This document shows, in pieces, positions 27,201 to 63,233 of a DNA stretch of 64,000 nucleotides. The stretch lies in contig CM097882.1 in NCBI GenBank assembly GCA_044892505.1, positions 282,100,001 through 282,164,000 on the forward strand, written 5' to 3'. The notes beneath the pieces are model-generated. The model ran no database searches and was not told where the DNA came from. It saw only the letters and a list, made by a program, of their open reading frames with translations. Origin of the DNA: Schmidtea nova (lineage: Eukaryota). The translations under genes and the position numbers were made by a program. Each line of letters begins with the position of its first letter. Positions within the stretch are counted from its first letter, which is position 1.

Positions 27201-30200
27201 AAACATAATGTAATAAATGAAGAATATTAATCTTTTACACGAAATTCAAATGGTTTTAACTTTTAACGTTTTAAAAAATTTGTAAATTATAAGTACGGCC
27301 GTACAATACTGCTTGGGAATTTTCACGAGATGTCATTATGTGGTAAACATTTTATATCACACAAACCGCTGTCCTAGCTAGTAAAATGATTACAAAGTGA
27401 AGCTCGTTTACGCGCTCATTTTGTATTGTAGGTCTGATACGCACGAACATATAAAGCGCGTTAACATGATAAAGATGCAGACAATTTTTGTTCCCAATAC
27501 ATTCACTGGCAAAGAAAAATCTACAATATCCAGAAGATTGAATAAAAGATTGTCATCCCCCCTCAAAAAAAAACACGGAAATAGAAATTATGAATTTTAT
27601 TACGACTAATTAAAAAGCTCATCTATATGGTCATTATCATTGATATCTTCCAGTTGAAGAAAAAGGATTTTCTTATCCTTATCTTTTTAATATGCAACTC
27701 TCCGACCAAGAAAAGAATAATTTTTAAACATAGAAACTTAGATTTAAAATATTATATTACATTAAAAATATGATTACATGACGAAATTACACAAGACGAA
27801 ATTACACGAGACGAAATTACACAAGATGAAATTACACGAGACGAAATTACACAAGATGAAATTACACTGAGACGAAATTACACGGGATGAAATTACACAA
27901 GACGAAATTACACTAAAAAATAGTAAAAAATAAAATTATTTTATTATTTATTATTTAATATTAAAATTATTAATATTATTAATATTATTAATTATTAATT
28001 ATTATTAATATTATTAATATTATTATTAATATTATTATTAATATTATTATTATTATCAATAATTCTCATAATGACTATAGATCAAATTTTTTTTATAAAC
28101 AATAACACAATATTTCGGCACAGCCTTTATCAAGTGAAATACACACTTGATAAAGGCTGTGCCGAAATATTGTGTTATTGTTTATAAAAAAATTTGATCT
28201 ATAGTCATTATGAGAATTATTGATAATAATAATAAAAAAAGATCAAAGGTGAAAAAAGATAATTATGATATTNNNNNNNNNNNNNNNNNNNNNNNNNNNN
28301 NNNNNNNNNNNNNNNNNNNNNNNNNNNNNNNNNNNNNNNNNNNNNNNNNNNNNNNNNNNNNNNNNNNNNNNNNNNNNNNNNNNNNNNNNNNNNNNNNNNN
28401 NNNNNNNNNNNNNNNNNNNNNNNNNNNNNNNNNNNNNNNNNNNNNNNNNNNNNNNNNNNNNNNNNAAATTATTATTTATTATTAAAATTATTTTATTATT
28501 TAAAATTTTCAATATATTTAATGCTAAATTTAATACTTAACTTTTACTAATTTTTTTTAAACTTTTTATTAAAACTTTTTACTAATTTTTTTTGAACTTA
28601 CTATTTTTTAGTGTAATTTCGTCTTGTGTAATTTCATCCCGTGTAATTTCGTCTCAGTGTAATTTCGTCTCAGTGTAATTTCATCTTGTGTAATTTCGTC
28701 TCGTGTAATTTCATCTTGTGTAATTTCGTCTCGTGTAATTTCGTCTTGTGTAATTTCGTCTTGTGTAATTTCGTCCTGACACCAAAAATATGAAAGTCAA
28801 GAACATTTTCTAGCACATTTTAAAATGCGTTCCGTAAAAGTAAATATTACAATTCAGTATATTAATGGGAAACAAACGGTAATTTAGATTTCAAATATAA
28901 TTCTTCATGAATTTGCACAGATAATTTCAAAGGAATAATGTGAGGATAAGGGATTAAATTAATAAGGCACTTCAATTGAATAAATCTATAAAATGTAATA
29001 TATATTTTATCCTAGATTTTATCACAAAAAATTTCAACAGCTGTTCATGATCGTAATAAAGCAAAATTAAAAAACATAGGCACTTTCCAAAGACTGAATA
29101 TACTTGAAGATTAAATAAATACGAAAACTAATCAGGAGGAATCACAAATATCAAGACTTAATCTAGTTTTAATGGGTATTTCACATTGTATTAGTAATCT
29201 CAGTAAAATACATATTTCTTTGGCGCTCTATAATGAACCAATGATATACGAACAATATTTTAAAATTAAATTCAATTATAACAAAGAATTACCTGCTGAA
29301 TATGGAAGTGTTTGATTCTTTAAATGAAGCGCAATTTCCGTAAGTAATGATCGAAAATTTGGTACATAATCACGCCATTTTACTTGTTGTGCTTGCACGA
29401 TCATGTCGATTTCCAATTGGATCATGCTCACTTCTAGGTGCCGATAAGGGGCCGGCGGTCTTGGCAGTTGGAGGGCAAATATTAATAAATGGAAAGCAAC
29501 TTCGATTAATCGGGCTTTAGAAGGCATCATTTGACGTTGAGGAGGTGAGATTTTTGACCAGTCAATAGATTCATTTACAAGACAGTTAATCAAGAATTGC
29601 ATTCGCTTCATTAAAGTTCTTGACTGTTAAATTAAAATTTTATTTTTAATATTAAAATTATTTTTATATTAAACAATATCAATAATTATTATCAAACGTA
29701 AATGTAAGATAAAGTGACGATTCCAGCTTTCAAGGTCATCAAATATAGTTTAATTGAATACATATGAATTTTAATAATTATTTTATTTTGTTGCTTTTAT
29801 TATTTAATTATTAATTAATTAATTTAAAAATTAATTTTAATAAAATAATCAGTTAATAAAAGGAAAAAATAAAATATATATATATATTAATTAAAAAATA
29901 AATAATGTAAAGTAATAAAATAAAAATTATTAAATAAATAAAATAATTAATTAATAAAAGCAATAAAATAAAGAAATAAAATAAAGAAACAATAATTTAA
30001 AAAATAAATAATATAAAGAGAAGATTTTTTTTTAATTACACGAATTTTCGGCACAGCCTTTTTTAAGTATGTACACTTACAACTCTCGATCAAGAAATAA
30101 TTAAAAATTTTAAATTATTTTATTGTCAAAAAAATTATCAACAAACTAGGTCAAATTCACAATTAACGGGCTGGAAAATTAACTTAAAATTATTGGATGC

Positions 30201-49810: not shown

Positions 49811-51228
49811 GATTTAATGACTTATAAATATAGCTTCTCGCCATAAACTGCAGCTGTCTTATTTAAGGCATTCAAACAAACGTTCTAAATCTAAGTTAAT
49901 TTTATAAATTATTAAGAAGGATTTTACTGTATTTTTACGTTTTTAAATAAAATTAATTTGTTTTCAATTAATTTAATTATTTTTATTTATAGAAATGATT
50001 TTTGGATATAAACTTGTGATAATTCAATTTTTTAGAAACTAATAATTATTTGTTGATTTTGAAATATAATTCATTTTTAATTTTATATACATTGATAATA
50101 TATACTTTAGCGTATAATTAAAGTTGTTTTTATAAATCAAGGCATTTTTATTATTTTGACTACTGATAACAAGTTTAAAAAGATTATTTCTAGAATATGG
50201 AAATGATGGTAGTGCTGATGTTTTGTAGGTGGTTTAATAATCAGACTTTAATACTTCTTTTGAAACACATAAAAACTAATTCCCTACTGTTGCCATCCGT
50301 TGCTTGGCAACGTTGGTACTGTACCAAGGGGTTGAATGTGTCTGCAAAATGTGAGCTGCATCTTCGCGACTGCTAATGCCCTGGCAATTCATTAGGTCCA
50401 AGTACCACAGATAGAAGGTTATTTTTACTTTTTATTCTGGACCCATCATGTATCTAATTTATCCTTACTTTCCAAATATCTTTGAATAGAAAATAATTAT
50501 GATATACTCTAATAGAAACATTTATATTTAAATGTTTCTTTCTTTTAGAATTTATTTACACTCTTCCTCAGCCTAATTACTGTTAGACAAAAATGGAATT
50601 CTTTTTAAATAACCTGGTAATACAGTATGTAGAGAGGGCGCACAAAGTGAACTTAAAATGTGATTGAGAAAAACACCAAGTAAAACACAGTAATAACAAA
50701 ACACATGAAATAATTAATTAAAATCAATTAAAATGAACAAAAGCGCATTAGGTATACATGTTAAAAATACACGCAGAACATAAAACACTAATTATGCAAT
50801 AAAATAACAAACTCGGAAAAATTAACATATTGCTGGTTTATTGGTGTTATTTACAACGGAGATTCTAGTTGATATTAAATGTCAGGGTAATCTCGCCAAC
50901 ATAAACACGCTTTCCCCGCTGATACCCATGATGTGTCCCTAACTACTCATCATGTTGGTACTGTATCAATATTGTGAAATGATGAGGCAGGTGAGCAACC
51001 TTGCGGCTACTATTCCTTCATTTATTCACGGGTCCACCACTACCAATAGAAGGTTTATGTGGATTTTTTACGGCCCCAATTGATCTATACGATTGATCTA
51101 TACGAATTGATCTATCCCTGGCCTCCAAATGAATCGCGTATATTATTAATTTGCTCAATCACTCACTTATTTCATCACACATTACTCGCCAATCCACAAC
51201 AAAAACAAGACCTTCGAACATAATACAT

Positions 51229-52490
51229 TTATTTCCCTAAAAACATGGTTGGATTTATAATGTTGATTAGCTGCCTCTCAGATAAGCCACTGAGTAGATC
51301 AACTTCGATACCAAGCCTTTCTGCATACGCCCTTCTCTCTCGTCGACGTTTAGCCACAAGACGGTTCCTTTTCTCTGTCCTCGTCAGCTTAACCTGGGCC
51401 GGTTGTGCGGTCGATGTCTCTCTTTCGTGTGTCGTACTAACGACCTCCTCTGTCTGCGTCGCCATATTCGTATTAGTGGGGGTTACCCATCTATCAAACG
51501 GACTCACTCGGATCAGTGGTTTCAACTGTCCTTCGAAAAACTTTCGATTCGATGCCCGTAAGTAATTATTCAATTCCAGCCTGGCAGCGGCTGTTTCTCG
51601 AGCCTGCTCCTCCAGCGCTCTTTCTGCTCGATACCGACGCTGCTGTATCTCTTTCACTTTTTCGGGATCGAACCATGTTTTATTTAGGGTATCAATTTCC
51701 ACTGTTTGACGACTTATATGTCGCTCTAAGAGTGTATTCGTCTCTGCAATTGTCGCTGATTGTCCGTATCTACGTCTTTCAGTACTCGATCCATCTACAA
51801 TTTATATGGATATTATACAGGCTATATCGGTTTTACAAGACAGCTCCTACTCAACGCGCGATTCCCTTTTTATCATACCTCTTGGTCACTACATTTATCA
51901 TTCATCCATTCATTCCACATCAGTCAACATCAATTTTCGTCCAAGTTTACCCAATCTTGATTACATGGGCTTTCTGGTTTTCGAATACCAATTGGATAGA
52001 AGTACTCATCGTTCGGTTTCCAACATACCCGGTCCTGGTGGATAAAGATCTCTCAGAGTTGAAGGCTTGGCAGCTAATTTGCCTGATTTGCACATATACC
52101 CCAAGGTGAATTTGTGTACGGCCTGCGCTCTTCTGTCTGGACATCCCTCGGTTGGTCCAATAGAACAAATCCTAATCTTTGTAGAACATGTCCCGGAATT
52201 GACATGAAACTAATCATCCAACGAGGTGTGCCAATTTGATCCTCCAGTTGCAGGAACCATTTCCGTGATGACATTGATATGGATGGTCCTGACGGCGGCT
52301 ATTGAGCATCTCCTTCCCATCGAATATTAATTGTGTACGAGTCATTTCTCGCATTGGCCGTTAGATTACTATGGCTCCGTTTAAGATATCGTAGGCATCG
52401 TTCGGCTCGTGCTTTTATCAATGGGGGTATCCGTGAGGTTTCTCTCGGCTTCCGAATCTTTTGGGCTACAGATTTCTTTGATGTTGTCAT
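51229..52490 (-). pseudogene. Degenerate long ORF of unknown function
   Basis: ORFs 52299-52490 and 52074-52274 plus downstream sequence share one frame with scattered stops. A frameshift leads into the frame of ORF 51229-51702 (basic, coiled-coil-rich). Confidence 0.5.
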
Positions 52491-53735
52491 CTCTACAACG
52501 ATTAATACGCATTAGTTCCATCATGATCTCCCTTCACGTCAACTTTCGGAAATACCTCAGCTCACCCTGTATCTTGCTGGCGCACTGACTACCTTTGGAC
52601 ACAACATTCAATCATCTCAATCGTCCCTTCATTCATACCACATTATATCACCCGGTCAACATTTCGTCACGCATTCCATTGAACATCCTGTTTCCCACTT
52701 TACCATTCGTCTCGTCGTTATGCTTTCGCACTCACCATCGTCACAACATCATCTCCTCATTGTATTAATGCTAATCGTTATGCCTTCAAACATCGTTCAT
52801 GCCGTGCTGATTGTTTTGTTATTAGTTGTGATGAAACTTTATTTCGGTATCGATCTATCAAAACTCAATTCAGGCATTCGTTCGCAATTCGTACCACATC
52901 ACCAGCAATCATATTCAATCATGTCTCCTCACATGTATTTTGAGTATGTACTCATTTCTGTCAAGAACGTAATTCACTTGGTCTTTGTGTAGAAATCAGC
53001 ATTAGAACGTTTTCTGCTAGTTGTATCTCTGGTGCGTGTGATTCTAACCTCTGCATGCAAAGAATCGTTACTATCCCTACCTGGAACTCATGCTCCTCAC
53101 CGATGCTCTCAGTAGATTCAACATTCATCTTCAATCATCTCTATGAGCATCCCTCCCATATCGTTTAGTCGCATTGATCTACGCCGCATCAGTCAACCCC
53201 GGTAAGGTGCTGTCTGAGAGGCCCAAATCTCCTGTCAGGTACGATGACTTTCGGGATGTCCTATTCATTTTAGTTATCATGAGGGTTTAATATGAAATCA
53301 CAATAATAAACACTTACACACCTTTATTACCAATCCTTCAATAGGTTTACAATTTACTTCCAAGTTTGATACAAAATAACTTTCAAGGTTCAGATCGTTG
53401 TCAATAAAAATTACCACTTGGTAAAAATGACTGACTGCACTGAATTTGGCTGCCGTATTTATACTTGTTTTTGCCGCCGGCCAACCAATCAGATTTCAGG
53501 GTGTGTGTGAGTTTGTCATTGATTTCATTTTCAATACCCACCATTACGTTTTTAATCTGATGAGTTTGTCTGTCGATGCGTAACATTTTTTCACTAATAT
53601 TTATTTTAGTTTTGTTGTATTCTTTGCACCGCTCACCCCCGCGTTGTTATCTTAAGTAACTTAGTGTTTCACTTGTCAGATTTATGTCATTTGTCTATCT
53701 GGTTACTTCTCGGGTGTTCTACTCTCGTCTCAGCC

Positions 53736-54041
53736 ATGCTCGGCAATTTTGTTTTGCATGGTTGGTTTTGTGCTGGTAAGTTTTATTACTCACCATTATT
53801 AATGTTATTTTATTTCAGGCTTTACTGCTCTCCAATTTATCGGTGGTAATTTTATTACTGTCGGTACATTTGATTGCTGACATATTTTTGACAGCTCTCA
53901 TTATCGTTCTGTTGGTTGCTATCTATTTCGTTCCGGTTCGGTGGTAAGTTATGTATTTTATTACCGCTTTATTATTACGTAATTTGTTTCAGGCTCGTTA
54001 CATTTACTGCGTTCTGCTTGTTATTGATGTACCGGTTGTAA
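53736..54041 (+). CDS. Four-exon micro-gene encoding a 54-aa highly hydrophobic peptide, antisense to the retroelement
   Basis: Exons 53736-53775, 53819-53845, 53895-53943 and 53993-54041. Introns of 43, 49 and 49 nt have GTAAGT/GTAATT donors and TTTCAG/GACAG acceptors. Spliced frame: MLGNFVLHGWFCAGFTALQFIGALIIVLLVAIYFVPVRWLVTFTAFCLLLMYRL*. CCAATCAG upstream at 53485. Confidence 0.55.
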
Positions 54042-54486
54042 TTTAGATTTTTCTTTATTTATTTGTTTTTAATATTTATTTTCTTGTTTTTAAATTGATT
54101 TGCCTGGCCCAACATCACTGGGGGTCCCCTTAAAGTTGCGTCCCTCAATTACATACATGCACTTACGTCAAAATACATAAAAAGTTCGTGACAGAGTTCA
54201 CATGCAAAACCACATAAGGTGGTTTTGATATTTCTCCAGTTGATATTTCTCTATCAGTCGTTCGCGTTGTCGTACTTCGTAAAACTGACATGCCATCACG
54301 TCGTTTAATTCTATGGTTCTTCGTTCTAATTCCCCTTCGCATTTCCTTTTGATTTCTCTTTCTACTGCTTCTTGTTCGGTTATTGATTCGTTTCTCGATT
54401 CCTCGTCCGTTATAAGTTCGTTTACGTTTTCCATTATTGACGATTTTTACACTTTATTTACAGGGTCATTCACTCCACTACTCCAA

Positions 54487-55890
54487 TTATCCTTTCGTTG
54501 ACTTCTTATTCAACATTGTCGTGCTTGTTTTCTTTTCGACCTCCAACTCCACATATAGGATGTCGTCGTACAACATTTCCCATTTTTTACTTTGTACGGT
54601 GAATTTTGGTTCTCCTGTTGACAATGAACATTTTGTGGTTGGTCTTTTGTAAGCTTCGTGCTTCCCATTGATTTTGAATATTCTCACTATCGTTTCTCTC
54701 GAGTTTTTGATCTTCAACGTCGTCCTTGCTTTTAATGGCCATTCCAATATGTCGTCGTATCCACCTTTGCACAACGCAAAGAATAATGACACATGCGTTT
54801 CTTTTCCTGGTCCATCTCTATTTGGATAAATTCTCATTCTGACTTTGTATCCATTTTTCCACAGATAGAATGGTGGACTTGTCACTGACATTTGTCTTCC
54901 TGTTTATGCTGCTGTGAACTTATCATTGAAGTTCGTGATTTTCCACACGTATGGTGCAACAGGTAGGCTTTTTATGTCTTTCACATATCGAATCCATATC
55001 CAATGTCGTACATTTTCCCTTTGCCAAGTTCTCTATGACTGTGATTTTCTCCATCATTTTCTCTCTGGTGAGCTCGAATTGCTCTCTGGTTTCCAGCAAT
55101 AGTTCCGTCATTATCCTTTGGGATTCTATTTCCTTTTCCAACTTCTGTATTGTTTGTTCCATTTTGCTCACATTCTCTGTCAACATCTCCACGTGTTGTA
55201 CAGTTTCCGTTTCTAAATGTTCTTTCATCTCTTTGCTTGTTTTCTTTACTTAGCATCCCTGTTTACTCCATACACACTTTCTTGGTTTCGATTCACACTG
55301 CTCCCAAAGTTTTCCGTAGTATCACTTCCTCTGGGATTCCACAAATGTTTGGACATCTACCTCTGAATTTTTCACACACCTTCTCTCCTGATACGTTGAG
55401 GTGCTCTGTTTTGATTATTTCTCTCATTTCTCTTTATTCGCAATGTTGACACTCTACTATTTCTGCCTTGCACTCCTTCTTGTGATTTTCCAACTGTTTG
55501 ATGGTTGTCGTCTGTTGACATTTTTCGCATATTGTTTTCTTGTTCTCGCATTTCTCCAGATGTTGTCTCAATTCGATTATTTGTCCCTTCCATTCGCATG
55601 GTTGATTTATAAACTTCGTTTTTATCTTCCAGATCTCCTTTTGGATTGCTTTGTCTGGTTTCATTTCATTGATCAGTAGTTTATCGTCAAATTCTGGACA
55701 CTTCCTTGTCCCACCTTTATTGATTATTTGCAATATACATTTTGTGCACATTCTGCATCCACACTCTGCTTGTCTCGGCTTCAACAACAAGTTTTTACAC
55801 TTTACACATATTACGGTTAATCCCAATTGTCGATTCTCTCTACGCAAACTTTCGATTGTTTGGTAATCTGCTTCACTTTCTGCTCTTATT
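54487..55890 (-). pseudogene. Intronless TRAF-like coding region (RING, TRAF Zn fingers, coiled coil, MATH), interrupted by stops and frameshifts
   Basis: CVKCKNLLLKPRQAECGCRMCTKC; CEWKGQIIELRQHLEKC; CVWSKQGC..EMKEHLE..QHVEML; PYVWKITNF; SPPFY..GYKVRMRIYPNRDG.GKETHVSLFFAL.KG.YD.IL.WP. Confidence 0.9.
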
Positions 55891-56621
55891 CTACAATTTT
55901 AATTCTACAATGATATTTACATCAAGCTTTCATATTTCTGATTTTTCTGGTTTCGTTTTATACACATATATACAATTTCCCGCTTTATTTCACTACACAT
56001 CTTCAGTCGAGCCTGGCTCTGGATATACGTCTATCTCATTTACAATCCAGTTTGTCCAACTATCTGGTATCTCTTCCACTTCTTGTATCGTTAGCCGATT
56101 AATCTCTTCTGCTTGCCAGTCGTTTACTTCTTTTAGCATCTGATTTTCATTCTGTAATTCATTTATCTGCTGTTGTTGAATCTCAATTTTGTTCATCGCT
56201 TCAAAATTGCAGTTGTAACTCTCGGTTAGTAATTGCGTCTTCACCGTCAATTGGCTTCGTAATTCATTTACAGTTCTGGCTAGCATGTCACATTGCACTT
56301 TCTATCTAGTCATCATGGATATTTCTGAAGTTTCTTGGTTCATCGTTTTTCTGGATTATATGCATCATTCTCTTTTTCTCGTTTTTACGTTTTATAATAT
56401 TTATACCCATACGTATACGGTTATGCATTGATTTTTACATTACTATTTACACGCATATTCCTCCCTCTATACAACTGTTACTGGTTTTCCTTCATAACGC
56501 TTCTCGTCTTCGATTTGTTCCCACATTTCTTTGCATTTCGATCTTCTTCTAAGTTCTTCTCGTACTTTCTTTGGTAGCTCCATGCTGTAATTCATGACCT
56601 TTACATCTGGCCATTGCACTG

Positions 56622-58400
56622 TTATAGTCTAATTCTCATGCCATACATCCAACATACTACCATAATCGTTATTAGTGGTATACACGCTATGAATACTCCC
56701 ATGCTAATCAATCCCATTACTCTTTTGCCAATACTCATTTCTTTTGTTTTGCTTTGATTTATCATTACACCATATTGACTTTTCCATTCAACTTTCCATT
56801 GTTCGTATAGTTGCTGTCTCTGTCTGATTTCTTCGATCACTTTCTCAGGTTTCCATCTTTCTTGACGATTTGGTATTGTTTCTTCGGTCTCTATTCGTTC
56901 TCTCATCTGACTCAATTCTCTGAATTCTAGTCTTCTGATTCTTCCTTTTATCATCGTATTTCTTGACGTATAATAGGTTTCGAACTTTTCTTGTTGGTTT
57001 CCTTGTGCATCTACTGCTTCTATTGCACAGACTTCGTATTCTGCATTTGTTTTTAACTTCTCCATTTTGACTTCTATAATTCCTTCTTTTCCGCTTCTCG
57101 TTGTCCTCTGACAATTTCTTGGAGACTTTCCCACGTTATTTGGCATTAGTTGCCAATATATTTCTAAGACTTTCTTATGGATCTTCCATATTATCAGAGT
57201 TGTCGATTCTGGTTTAACTTCTTTTTCCGTTGTTACCTCATTCATCGTTGTCTGTTGAGTTCGTTAGTTACTAGTTATAGTAGTCCTTCTTGACTCCTTT
57301 CTTTTCGGTGGACTTCTCATTTCAATTATTCTCGTTCCGTTGATTCTCTCTGGTGTCTTGTACAATTTGCACTCTAGGCTTCTTTGTATTATTTCTCTTC
57401 TTCTTCTGATTACACAAATTTCGTATGTCTGTCCGACTTCGAATCCGTCTAGTTGAAATGGGATTCCTGGTTCTCTCGTTTTACATTGTGGTATTATGCC
57501 GCTGGTTGATAGTCCGATATATTTTCTCCAACACATTCCTATCGTCCTTGGGCTGACGTTTTTTATTTCTACTGTCACTACTTCGTTTGCTCTCGCTTCT
57601 TTGTTTTGCTTCTGTCTTTTCGGAAACTCGATTGTCTCCTTTGGTTTAAACACTTTACACTCGCTCGTTCCTGGTCTGTTTCCGTTTGTTGCCTTTTCCA
57701 CGAGACATAGTTCACATACTTTATCATCTCCATTTCGGTTATTTCGATCGCTTTATTTGTCTCTGCCTTTCGACTTTCTTTAGTTTCGCTGAACCCAATT
57801 ACTTCATTGTTTCTTCCCCAACATCTTCCGTCCGTTGTTCGTTTGTCTTTGATGTTAACAAACGTCATCACGCTGATATCTATTTCTTTCTCGATCCTCT
57901 TAATTAGGATTAGTATTAATGCTACGCATATCAATTCTGGTTGAAATGTTAAATTCCCCGCTGGACTTTTAGCTGCCCTTTCTTTCTCTGTTTGGTTTCC
58001 GGTTACCTCTTCCGCTTCGATTTGATTCGTTCGTCTTTCTGGTTCTACTTCTGTTTTTTTCGTTGTCTCTTTATTTCTTTTCCCAATGCCGTTTTGTATT
58101 TTCAGCGCTCTCGTTGCTTTGTACAATTGACATGCCGTTACTTGAGGTGCTTTTGGTTTTCCTCTCTGATTTACTGCGCATATTATGTATGACTTTTCTT
58201 TCTCCAATCCTTTGATTTGGATGACGTCTCGTTTCAAATCAGACAATATACACTTCAGCGGTTCTTTCTTCTTCATATTCTCTTTCCAGCATATTCGTTC
58301 GCGCATTTCATCTCTTCTGATGATTTCCAACTTGGCATATTGTTTCTCTGCTTCGCCTTGTCCGATGAGTGTTATTAATTTTGCGAGGCATAACATTTCT
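56622..58400 (-). pseudogene. Four FN3-like modules followed by a transmembrane helix
   Basis: Repeated motif: IKGLEKEKSYIICAV; ITEMEMIKY(E)LCLV (frameshifted); LDGFEVGQTYEICVI; MEKLKTNAEYEVCAI. Hydrophobic GLISMGVFIACIPLITIMVVCWMYGM near 56640-56718. Confidence 0.55.
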
Positions 58401-59512
58401 GGTCTTAAAAGTAGACTCCCTGTTCGTTTCCCATAGTTTGTGCATTCATCCTTTGTTCTATAGTTTGCTCGTTCCTCGGCTTCTCCTTTCTTGTCGTTTC
58501 TCGTTGGTTTCTGTTCTTCTAGATTTTCTTTTTTATCGTATTCTGTTTTTCCTTTATCGTTGTCTCCGCCGTTATTCTTGTCGTCGTCATTTTTATCGCC
58601 ACCTTTGTCGTCGTAATCTCTGTAACCACCCCCTGGTCCTTTCAAAATGTCGTCCTCGACATTGATCTCTTTTATCATTCTTTCATACACTTGAAGTGCG
58701 AGTGTGCTAAACTCAAATTCTCGTATTTCTGTGTCTTTGGGTGGTTCTGTATTCTCTCGTTTACATTGCTTGATTGTTTCTGTAGCATTTGCCCATGAAT
58801 TTATATACATTCTGAATAAGTCCATCCATCTTCCTGTTCGTTCATGTTCCTTTGTATTATTCGTAAATCTCAGATCACTTCTTTTCATGAACTCCTCTAC
58901 TATCTCTGACTTTTTGTGTCTTAGTAACGTGCTTCTGATACACCAATTCTGATTTTGTTCCATATGGCCATTAATCTTGAATACCGGTTTTTTTGTGACT
59001 GGATTTATCCATGTCAACAACGCTGTTGTATTCTCGAGGTCGTGTATCATCACCACTAGACTGAATTTTCCCCCGTTATTTGCCAGATATTCGATCTCAT
59101 CTTGCTTCTTGATTGATTTTATGAAGTTTATCATTTCGAAGTTATTCCACTGTATCGCTATATCCAAGATGGAGTTATTCTTCCCATTCTTTCCTTCGAC
59201 CTTGGCTCCTGCTTTGTATAATTTATTCAACACTTTCCGCTTCGTCTTTTTCCTTGCTGCAATTATCATAATCGTATCTCCGTTGTCATCAGTCGTATTC
59301 ATATCTGCTTCACATTTGACTATTATTTTCGCAACTTCTATAGCCTCATTGTCTTTCTTTCGACGTAATGCCCAGTGTATCGGCAATCTTCCATCTTTTG
59401 GTAGTAGAACTTCCACTGGCATTTGACTTTTGATCGTTGTTATATCGCTTTCGTTATATTCTCCTTGTGCATATATGTGCACTTTCTCTGTAATTGATCC
59501 CAATATCTCCAA
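57578..59512 (-). pseudogene. Ankyrin-repeat cluster 2 and downstream cargo (644-aa segment of polyprotein)
   Basis: DGRLPIHWA..; ADMNTTDDNGDTIMIIAA; GAKVEGKNGKNNSILDIA. Confidence 0.8.
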
Positions 59513-59796
59513 AGAGTTTTTATTCTACTTGAATTCTGGTATACTTTCTTGTGCCTTTGCCACTATTGCTTCTAATTTCTCTTGATAATCCGCTTTTGCA
59601 TTAAACAACACTGCTTTGCTCCTAATTCGTGTTTGCATCTGTTTCATTCGCTGATCCTGATATACTGCTTGTCTGAAGAATTGTCCGTATTTCAATGCTT
59701 TCACCAGATCCTTGTATCGTTGGCGTATTTTTTATGTTTCTTTTGGATATCGTAGAAATGTTCGAAACTCATATCCGGATTCCACTGTTTGTCGTA

Positions 59797-60924
59797 CTAT
59801 TTCTTGATTAATCCGAATAATTCCTTCTTCCTGTCTTCCAGTCTGTATTCTTTAGGGTTTTCACTGACTCGTAATATATCTCTTGATATCAAGACCGCGA
59901 GTGTTTTTGGATCATATGGTACTTCTAGTAGATGTTTCAGTAACGCATTTTCTTCATACGTAAACACTTCGTTACAATCTACTACCCATGAGTCTCCTTC
60001 CGGTCGTTTCCACTTCAACAACATTCTCCAGGTTTTACTGTTGCTTACGCTGATTGCTTGTCTCATGATTGGACCTCTGGATAATTCATCGATCTCCCAC
60101 GTGGCATTTTTCGTGATATACTTAAGTATTCGGTGATTTGCTCTATCGATTGCATGAATAAAGAACGTTCGTCCTTCTTTATCTCTCGTTGTCCAATTTG
60201 ATCTGGTGTTCCCAAATAATTCGACTATTTCCTTGTTTCTCCCGTGAATCGTTATCATCATGAGTGGGGTAATTCCTTCCCAATTTACTTTGTCGATTTC
60301 TCCTCCACCTTCGAGTGTTATCTCGATGATTTCTTTTACTTTTTCGTTTCCGCTGTGCTTGATTGCGTTATGCAGCACTGTGTTACCGTCTTTATCCTGT
60401 AGACTCAATGTTTGTGGGATCTCTTCTAGAAGCGTTCTTGTCATTGGATGCGCTGATCTGTCTTTCGCATATTCCATTACGTTTTTCCGCACTTCTGTCA
60501 GTAGGTCGAAATCATGCCACCATTTCCATTCCGGTACTATCTCTCTGGTCTTCTTTGCCAGTTCCTTGATATCTACTGTTTTTCTTCGGTTGTCTTCTAA
60601 ACTTGTTTGCGGCTTTTGTTGTACTCGCAACATATTAATTCTTGCCGTTTGTGATCTCGTCATCACTCGTTTCTCTGGTAGTAAAGTTGCGGTCTTTGGT
60701 ATTTTCTTGCATCGACATGCGTTTACATAAATTGGTCTCACCAATGAATTGTTTACTAGTCTCACCCGTACATTATTCTCGTTGACCGTTGTTATTTCGT
60801 ACGGCCCTTTGCCTGGTCGTTGCAGTTTCTTGACTGTACCGGGTATTATTTCCGGTGTCTCAATTATCACCCAATCTCCAATTTTTAGCTCAAGTGCCTT
60901 CACATTTCTCTTCTGATCATGCAA
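59797..60924 (-). pseudogene. Integrase C-terminus (GPY) fused to ankyrin-repeat cluster 1
   Basis: LKIGDWV..KKLQRPGKGPYEI, then DKDGNTVLHNA, NWEGITPLMM, DKEGRTFFIHA. In frame with integrase ORF 60979-61392 across a single TAA. Confidence 0.85.
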
Positions 60925-60978
60925 GTCCTTGTAACTCTCTTGGTAGAATTTGATATTGAGTTCTGCCGTTTTCCAGAT

Positions 60979-62141
60979 TTATTGCATTCTTTCTTTGAAC
61001 TTTGTAACATAATCGTCAACCTCCATGTAATGCGATAATGGCGGTTGGTATTCCAAGTCAATTGGTAGGTTGCAATCTCTTCCGTACATTAATCGGAATG
61101 GACTTAGCTTCGCCGCCGCATGTATTGACATTCGATATGCCATTAAACACAAGTTAATATATTCGTCCCAGTTTGTTTGATGTCTACTCACATAATTTGA
61201 TAGCATGCGTATCAATGTTCCATTGAACCTTTCTGTTTGACCGTTCGTTTGTTGATGGTATGGGGATGTTCGCAATTTCACAATTCGGAAGTAATTCGTA
61301 ACTTCATCCAATATCTTACTCATGAAATTCGTTCCTTGATCCGTTAGGATTTTCTTTGGTGTTCCGTATCTGCAGCATATCTCTTCCACCAATATTCTCG
61401 CGACTGTTTTTGCTTTTTAGTCTGGTATTGCGAATGCTTCTGGGAACTTCGTCAGATAGTCCGTGACTACTAATATGTACTGATTTCCTTTTAGACTTTC
61501 TGGTAATGGTCCAACTACATCCATCGCTATCGTCTACATTGGTTCTGCATTGATTGGCATTGGCTTTAATGGTGTTTTCCACTTCGTTCCGGTGTTTTTT
61601 CTTGTCGCACAGATTAGGTAATTCTTTATCCACTCCTTTACGTCATCTTCCATGGTTGGCCAAAAATACTTTGTCTTAGTCTCACGATTGTCTTTTTTGC
61701 TGACATATGTCCACCTAATTTTCCGTCGTGGTACTGAGTCATGATCTCTTTTCTTCTATTTGCAGGTAAGCACATCAATCTCCGTTCTCCATTCTGTATT
61801 AACAACCATCCTTTTTCCATCACGTATCTGTGTTGATACTTCTGCATATGTTCGCGTAATACTTGGTTCTTGCTGAATATTTCCATATCCTTTTACTTGA
61901 TGATCAGTCCCAACTCGCCATCTTCAAGTTGATCTTTCTTTAGCTCTTTGAAGTCCAAATCTTCGACTATTAGCACGCATATCTTGGGAGCATCCAGATT
62001 TACCAACTCTGGGAATGTGAATCTTGACATGCAATCTGCGTTTGCGTTCGCTTTTCCTGCTTTGAACTTTATGAATGGCGAGTATTCTTGTAATTGCATC
62101 GCCCAACGCATCAATCTACTTGATGATGCTGGTTCTACCCC
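60979..62141 (-). pseudogene. Gypsy pol remnant: RNase H end plus integrase
   Basis: ORFs 61893-62207 (retroelement part up to about 62141), 61638-61886 and 60979-61392 carry canonical Gypsy RH and IN motifs with stops and frameshifts. Confidence 0.92.
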
Positions 62142-62647
62142 AAAAGGCAAACAGACAAAAGGCCGACACGAACACAAGGCCGACAGACAAAAGGCCGACA
62201 CGGACAAAAGGCAGACAAATAAAAGAACACTTGTAATAGCAAAAACTATTAAATAAAATCGGGGGATTCCTGGAAAATCTTTGATTTAGAATTTGATTTA
62301 GAGAATTCTAAATCAAAAACTTTCCAGGAATCCCCCGATTTTATTTAATAGTTTTTGCTATTACAACTGGGTTTTTTTGTTAAAAAAATGGGTTTTTGTT
62401 AAAGAGGTAATTATTATTTTAATTAGTTTAATGAAACGAAACATATATTTATATTTATTTATTTATTTTCCTTCATGGAATAGCTCACAATTTAAATTAT
62501 TTCTAATTTGTAATTAAATTTTTTATAGAACAAAGTATTTATAGCTAATTTTTATTTATTTTTTTTTATCCGTAAATATTCTGCCTTTTGTCCGTGTCGG
62601 CCTTTTGTCCATGTCGGCCTTTTGACCATGACGGCCTTTAATCCGTA
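62141..62647. mobile_element. MITE/foldback element with 15-bp tandem units (GGACAAAAGGCCGAC) as inverted ends, enclosing a hairpin; abuts the truncated pol
   Basis: Left array 62141-62214 and right reverse array 62579-62647. Internal hairpin at 62231-62366 with about 63-bp arms. Confidence 0.8.
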
Positions 62648-63233
62648 TACGTTGTAATTTCTTAATACTCATTTTATTGTTTTTATCTGAGAAAACTAAA
62701 GATTATCGATAATGCTATATATTTTTTTGGGTTATTATTATTATTATTATTAATATTATTGGCGGACACAGGATAACCCGGCCTTTTATTATTATTTTCA
62801 TGTTGGCAAATATGCCTGTAAAATGATTTTAAAAATAATAAATTAGAAATCATAAAAAAATTCAAAATTGAAATTATAATAAAATCAATCGTGATTTTAT
62901 TATTTAGATATGAATTTATAGTTGAATGGGAATGTGATTGTTTTTTTGTATCTAAAACAGTAAATAATGATAAAACAATAAGAATTACAGGTTTCTATTC
63001 TAGAAAGAATAAAGATTCCTATAATATGTAGTAAAACTCAGTAAGATGGTTTAGTTGAAAGGATATGCCAATTTTAAAAGAAAATCAATAAAATATTATT
63101 GTTGATCAAGTCTAAATCGGCTGATCAAGTTCAATATTCAGAATGTTATGTACGGGTGAGCTAAAGTTAAATTTTCTATAAAAGTTTATTGATTTTTTAT
63201 AATTTTTAGATTTCAATTCAGAAACTGTAGTTC

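Follow-up and report, generated by a model that had tools for sequence, protein, structure and literature searches.

Duplicated ankyrin modules behind a giant Gypsy integrase in Schmidtea nova: conserved polyprotein cargo with a candidate release site

The ankyrin (ANK) repeats encoded behind the integrase of a Burro-like giant Gypsy retrotransposon in Schmidtea nova are best read as conserved, duplicated polyprotein cargo that is likely cut free at a RIN|ML site and likely acts on host cell-death or immune signalling, a reading to which we give a probability of roughly 0.6. According to this reading, a single giant polyprotein would be processed into three products: the integrase, an ANK protein made of both modules, and a membrane protein. 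The element protease would cut at RIN|ML and part ANK from the integrase, which would keep its own chromatin tether, VMTRS, just ahead of the cut. The downstream fibronectin type III (FN3)-like membrane protein would be freed at a signal-peptide-like segment, and ANK, as a separate protein, would act on host signalling alongside TRAF, IAP-like and Bcl-2-like cargo.

Anatomy of the window copy and its relatives

The 64,000-nucleotide stretch analysed here (the window; GenBank assembly GCA_044892505.1, contig CM097882.1, positions 282,100,001 to 282,164,000) was read by three-frame translation combined with Pfam searches. On its minus strand, which carries all of the element features given below, lies what is left of a Burro-like giant Gypsy LTR element (50828..62130): truncated on its 5′ side and decayed, it starts with the last part of RNase H and includes the 3′ LTR. 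The copy is dead, retains the 3′ half of an element of the Burro/GYPSM1 type, and shares 82–87% nucleotide identity with younger relatives. Similarity to these relatives ends at 62130, and the 30 kb past the window end contain no match to this part of the element. A palindromic MITE-like insert (62135-62660; arms 62221-62293 and 62304-62376) is located at the truncation point. Elsewhere in the window, at positions 27776-28764 and 24-807, there are a long element of inverted repeats that contains 15-bp subrepeats, and tandem arrays with units of 13 and 120 bases.

The remnant opens with the end of RNase H and the connection (61893..62130), within which the junction motif KICVL (61971-61985) is a likely RNase H/integrase (RH/IN) protease site, predicted from its sequence. 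It is followed by the H2C2 zinc-binding domain of the integrase, the two pieces of which lie in different frames (61594..61766; PF17921, E = 1.6e-7 for both), and the integrase core (rve, 60982..61533), with stops at 61534-61536, 61417-61419 and 60979-60981. The next region, which we take to be GPY/F with approximate boundaries (60711..60900), contains the GPY motif (60799-60807), behind which, as the original prediction had it, comes a basic linker (its first 45 residues include 12 K/R and 3 D/E). Two short motifs, VMTRS in the integrase tail (60652..60666) and RINML at the integrase/ANK boundary (60628..60642), precede ANK cluster 1 (60106..60396; Pfam Ank_2, E = 4.4e-10) and ANK cluster 2 (59117..59395; Ank_2, E = 1.7e-7), each with three recognisable repeats; behind those of cluster 2, degenerate helical repeats are predicted. 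Both clusters exceed the Pfam cut-off, so the ANK identity proposed from the letters alone, for three repeats near 60130-60400 and a second cluster near 59130-59410, held under profile comparison. In the window, GPY/F and ANK1 share a single frame of 393 codons, which is interrupted farther on, between the clusters, by a shift of frame near 59730-59770 and by stops at 59797-59799 and 59525-59527. The direct fusion of ANK to the integrase that had been proposed is therefore borne out here from GPY/F to ANK1, and in full in the relatives, with the rest of the window frame broken.

Past ANK2 lies an acidic stretch, behind which the hydropathy scan resolves two hydrophobic segments and, at the C-terminus, a transmembrane helix. 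The first of these segments, which is signal-peptide-like (58349..58399) and lies behind the low-complexity acidic stretch, may be a signal anchor, judging from its hydropathy and position. The polyprotein tail proper (56470..58348), broken in this copy, comprises FN3-like beta-sandwich domains, the second hydrophobic segment (57893-57937) and the transmembrane helix (56649-56720). A separate, likewise broken TRAF-like gene (54487..55898) encodes RING, zinc finger, coiled coil and MATH parts (Pfam TRAF-mep_MATH, E = 3e-24; RING weak). Directly behind a purine-rich tract, the 3′ LTR (50828..54114, ~3.3 kb) begins with TGTTGGGCC; it is of an older LTR type, and the sequence it has in common with the LTRs of young copies is limited to the last 250 bases. 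Open frames of 190-231 codons occur in the LTRs, among them a window frame (51229-51801, minus strand) with a weak bZIP match (E = 0.007), and the LTR of one relative has a weak BTB match (E = 0.007).

Many relatives are present in the 1.25-Gb genome: all 40 scored DNA matches span almost the full length of the query, and 39 have an identity of 85-86%. The integrase and both ANK clusters share one open frame in 14 of 19 other copies. Among 126 copies scored as protein matches, which were picked by score and are biased towards intact copies, the stretch from the C-terminal part of the integrase to ANK1 is stop-free in 104, and stop-free frames of 5,076-5,114 codons are found in 26. When stops were mapped by codon in 28 distinct insertions, they were scattered and fell between GPY/F and ANK1 in one insertion; a conserved stop between integrase and ANK, the observation that the original prediction had named as speaking against it, is not found.

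Three relatives measure 25.7, 29.5 and 29.5 kb. Their LTRs are 2.3-3.3 kb long and 99.9-100% identical; the ends are TG...CA, and three of the four copies examined have 4-bp target-site duplications. The primer-binding-site-like sequence, which is common to the integrase-less family described below and which we take to be tRNA-Pro-like, starts ~6 bases past the CA end of the 5′ LTR. ORF1 of the relatives (~5,080 codons) reads, by Pfam, CCHC Gag-Env-PR-dUTPase-like (weak)-RT-RH-IN-ANK-ANK-membrane tail. The Env-like fusion glycoprotein lies in frame in the Gag/PR interval (PF24664, E = 1.7e-68), and for the stretch between PR and RT all five PDB matches are to dUTPase/dCTP deaminase proteins, albeit weakly (best E = 0.024). 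A separate open frame of 476-483 codons downstream of ORF1 encodes the RING-ZF-MATH TRAF protein. Neither Pfam nor pairwise comparison detected BCL2-like, BIR or SUMO-like motifs in ORF1 of this main family.

Duplication, constraint and candidate processing of the polyprotein

Each of the two ANK clusters forms the core of a module of ~230 residues that is present in duplicate, the two copies aligning with 20% identity (E = 1e-7); comparison of the cores only gave no significant match (E = 0.38). The alignment of the full modules identifies their origin as an ancient tandem duplication. Between the window copy and a young copy, dN/dS is lowest in the integrase (GPY/F; 0.04), 0.09 in each ANK cluster and 0.12 in the spacer, at dS values of 0.7-1.0. 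In three other older copies, ANK dN/dS is 0.07-0.13; in the most divergent copy, the value for ANK2 is 0.28. Variants common to young copies give pN/pS of 0.05 and 0.14. Both ANK modules are under purifying selection. A neutral passenger, acquired from a host gene and with its loss still pending, would agree with the broken state of the window copy and with young copies looking intact for a while even without selection. Such a passenger would not, however, be expected to show dN/dS of ~0.09 at this dS or shared-variant pN/pS this low, nor to persist in a lineage with 29% identity and a piN/piS of 0.10 (see below). Because all of these ratios are low, this explanation is largely refuted, and we regard it as highly improbable.

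Behind GPY/F, the order throughout the family is VMTRS, then RINML. The latter is conserved as [KR]I[NS]ML in 27 of 28 insertions, the most divergent copy reading RIKML, and so supplies the protease-site pattern between integrase and ANK for which the original prediction had allowed. A wider pattern, [KR]I[NCDS]x[LMIV], which was defined post hoc with the RINML site already seen, is present in four of four copies at the PR/dUTPase (KICRM), dUTPase/RT (KIDSV) and RH/IN (KICAL) junctions and at four sites behind the Gag knuckles. The main frame contains nine matches, two of which are away from any obvious junction, against 1.4 expected, and chance matches to the pattern occur at other places too, one of them within Env. 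Within the 1,607-residue tail that follows the integrase core, RINML is the single match, 19 residues past GPY/F (shuffle P 0.015-0.048). The candidate RIN|ML site is of the same type as Ty1 protease sites, for which the available text of PMC6952103 gives VPTIN*NVHTS and HLIA*AV, with Val/Ile at P2 and P2′. Based on its conservation, position and motif pattern, we infer that the element protease would cut ANK from the integrase at RIN|ML.

All 28 insertions retain the arginine of VMTRS, and 25 of them retain TRS. The spacing of the motif equals that of M483-V484-T485-R486-S487 in CMV IE1, and that of YPLR(S), found at the same position in sister Env-bearing families, equals Y537-x-L539-R540 in foamy virus Gag (PMC9040877, available text). 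In the same source, the CMV IE1 CTD, KSHV LANA and the foamy virus Gag CBS are described as acidic-patch anchors; in contrast to these tethers, the motif of the element sits on the integrase tail and spans only five residues. From conservation and motif likeness, VMTRS is a candidate nucleosome acidic-patch (arginine-anchor) motif and may serve as the integrase's own chromatin tether. The motif offers a handle on how Gypsy integrases that lack a chromodomain reach chromatin. In the same genome, 144 histone-fold matches were recorded, many of them dispersed and with stops, which suggests histone pseudogenes or a histone-carrying repeat.

The downstream membrane protein was approached through a low-confidence structure model. 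In this model, the beta-sandwich resembles many FN3 domains at Z ~7, where the threshold of the tool is 8, and the best match is the FN3 domain of Tie2 (VIA Z 7.4, rmsd 2.7 for 77 residues). Weak FN3 leads were also obtained from Atlas (0.78-0.81), Foldseek and Pfam, and a profile of the tail gave no match to PDB sequences. The FN3-like parts have dN/dS of 0.08-0.17 between the window copy and a young copy. The model points to the tail as a likely receptor-like membrane protein that would be freed at the signal peptide.

Natural controls and the role of the ankyrin protein

Two kinds of relatives serve as natural controls. Sister Env-bearing Gypsy families, with frames of 3,393-3,401 codons (L112:1-7689 and L114:3-7535), have integrases ~48% identical to that of the main family up to the end of GPY/F, and no ANK was found in them. 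Past GPY/F, these sisters encode YPLRS, a signal-peptide-like segment, a different, unannotated membrane protein and then an ORF of 469-483 codons without a Pfam match; one sister family has weak matches, to Bcl-2 at E = 0.005 and to a SUMO-like motif at E = 0.007. Conversely, in an integrase-less relative, PR is joined straight to one ANK module that is 29% identical to that of the main family. This relative is young and non-autonomous, with at least 150 copies that are 98-100% identical over the query and with near-identical LTRs. In the two copies examined (L170:2-9532 and L173:3-9666, at ~38.37 and 38.40 Mb of contig C3), RT, RH, IN and Env were not detected, and no zinc knuckle was found in the ORF. 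One copy has TRAF and BIR+RING frames (BIR E = 8e-15), and the other has different accessory frames. The PR-ANK frame is open in 150 of 150 scored copies, and piN/piS among 31 copies, the pairs of which are not independent, is 0.10 for ANK and 0.28 for PR. Since this family keeps PR-ANK open and constrained, ANK is maintained without an integrase in cis. A QVC|MF site, which may be homologous to RIN|ML, is also present in this relative.

These controls bear on the proposal, made in the original prediction, that ANK tethers the integrase to a host chromatin factor. If ANK stayed fused and steered integration through such a factor or a chromatin mark, in the manner of a chromodomain, its in-frame position directly behind GPY/F and its strong constraint would be expected. 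EHMT1, a reader of histone methylation, is among the generic PDB matches of the ANK module, and the spread of copies is somewhat uneven: in 125 of the 126 scored copies, one on a small contig being left out, the main family is not uniformly distributed (C1 KS P = 0.006; per-contig chi-square P = 0.018). The same copies are, however, dispersed over all three large contigs, and as to the insertion-site bias that had been considered, this chromosome-scale spread neither shows nor excludes targeting. Against a tether stand the constrained ANK of a family without integrase, the sister families in which a related integrase has no ANK, the protease-site-like motif that separates the two proteins, and the candidate tether on the integrase tail itself. 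In addition, if the fusion were not cut, the hydrophobic anchor that follows ANK would probably keep it at a membrane. Tethering is thus disfavoured, and we consider it unlikely.

Release could also serve the element's own life cycle, with ANK acting, for example, as a membrane-anchored assembly or trafficking adaptor for Env or the FN3-like protein. The acidic stretch and signal-peptide-like segment are always found behind ANK, in the integrase-less relative as well, and ANK bears no specific likeness to any host signalling ankyrin, both of which would suit an adaptor. Yet the integrase-less family keeps ANK without Env and with no zinc knuckle found in its ORF, the sister families spread without ANK, and the remaining cargo (TRAF, BIR) is of a signalling type. 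We regard this role as unlikely.

Searches for the affinities of the ANK module returned generic matches. Homolog and representative searches of public proteins gave multi-ANK proteins at 19-37% identity and no specific donor, with no Burro1-4/GYPSM1 sequence among the matches, and an Atlas search gave generic ANK clusters. In the S. nova genome, the best of 33 host ANK loci reached 30% identity (E = 6e-7), and no host donor was found. The best 60 PDB sequence matches were generic ankyrins without IkB or NF-kB, and no RHD-bearing protein was among the sequence-search matches. An RHD dimerisation (IPT) domain is encoded in two exons of a host gene, NFAT-like or Rel-like, at C3:38315424-38334851; no ANK exon was found within 150 kb around it, and the RHD DNA-binding model gave no match in this genome, which is uninformative. 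The ANK structure model has a mean pLDDT of 53, with ANK2 as its best part (~70-88), and Foldseek searches with it and with the tail model, both of low confidence, gave no PDB match at E ≤ 0.001. Among the fold matches of the ANK model, IkB-alpha ranks fifth (E = 0.07) amid generic ankyrins, and several poxvirus ANK proteins are among the weak ones. A single viral protein matches at E ≤ 0.001, the polyprotein of planarian secretory cell nidovirus (PSCNV; E = 6.7e-4); the match is weak (TMq 0.19, rmsd 29, 15% identity) and comes from a model of this mean pLDDT. The comparison with IkB and viral ANK families that had been suggested brings out no clear affinity to IkB, and any link between the nidovirus ANK and that of the element is weak and indirect. 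Pfam scans of the window, relatives and integrase-less family detected no PRANC, F-box or SOCS domain, and those of the post-integrase region in the window and relatives no chromodomain.

A target in host signalling is nonetheless suggested, because TRAF, IAP-like and Bcl-2-like genes are co-carried and because ANK has a fold likeness to the planarian virus protein. In the original prediction, the alternative to tethering was that ANK is cleaved off as an immune modulator. Of its two parts, cleavage is favoured by the protease-site-like motif; modulation, given the generic PDB ankyrins and the lack of F-box, PRANC and SOCS matches, is a lead, weakly supported by the fold match to the nidovirus protein. 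A more specific version would make ANK an IkB-like decoy that shares its kind or its origin with the nidovirus protein and belongs to a retroviral-style accessory kit (TRAF, IAP, Bcl-2-like, FN3-like receptor mimic), of enough value to be kept by integrase-less satellites, with the integrase docking on nucleosomes through an IE1/foamy-like motif. We view this combination as quite doubtful. The preferred reading remains that the two ANK modules are likely released as one protein and likely act on cell-death or immune signalling of the host.

Comparison with known systems

Poxvirus ANK/PRANC (F-box) proteins are ubiquitin-ligase adaptors. They and the product of the element are both virus-like ANK proteins; unlike them, the latter has no PRANC, F-box or SOCS domain by Pfam. 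The ANK of PSCNV, described in the available text of PMC6211748 as closest to planarian RHD-ANK proteins and proposed there as an IkB mimic, resembles that of the element in having approximately three divergent repeats within a giant, planarian-associated polyprotein with membrane segments nearby. In contrast to PSCNV, the present element is a retroelement with a duplicated module, the comparison is by fold and not by direct sequence, and IkB mimicry is a proposal even for the virus. Should ANK prove to act on Rel/NF-kB or on a cell-death pathway, this would be a case of host modulation in the style of large viruses by an LTR retrotransposon, in a stem-cell-based animal.

The element is assigned to the Burro/GYPSM1 type of giant Gypsy, by its likeness to the published description of the named Burro elements. 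In the available text of the review PMC6431247, the Burro/GYPSM1 plan comprises ankyrin repeats, MATH_TRAF, BIR, BCL2, dUTPase and an in-frame Env, and the ankyrin cargo of planarian giant retrotransposons is on record since 2007, as a list of motifs. Burro1-4/GYPSM1 and the Burro-like element of Dugesia tigrina share with the present family a size of ~30 kb, a single ORF1 of ~5,000 residues, a CCHC Gag, the in-frame Env between Gag and PR, ankyrin and MATH/TRAF, and possibly a dUTPase-like stretch between PR and RT (PMC6431247, same text). The placement of TRAF differs: here, a full RING-ZF-MATH gene lies downstream of ORF1, whereas MATH is within ORF1 in Burro1 and in an upstream ORF in D. 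tigrina. Levels of BURRO1 RNA increase upon RNAi against smedwi-2 (PMC8532177). The duplicated ANK module, the candidate cleavage site, the FN3-like tail and the integrase-less ANK family are absent from that portion of the review. In the literature on ankyrin with Gypsy integrase or Burro, figures and supplements aside, PMC6431247 as available is the only source that names ankyrin in such elements; in PMC13524379, neither Burro nor ankyrin occurs.

Taken together, the candidate cleavage map, the selection on both modules and the family that amounts to a natural 'integrase deletion' speak for an accessory protein that works on its own and not for a new targeting domain. Chromovirus integrases have a C-terminal chromodomain, and in them, as here, the extra domain is encoded directly behind GPY/F. 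The extra unit of the present element differs from that of chromoviruses in its size (~600 residues) and in containing no chromodomain; a motif resembling a protease site lies ahead of it and membrane segments lie behind it, and one family has retained it although no integrase is detected there.
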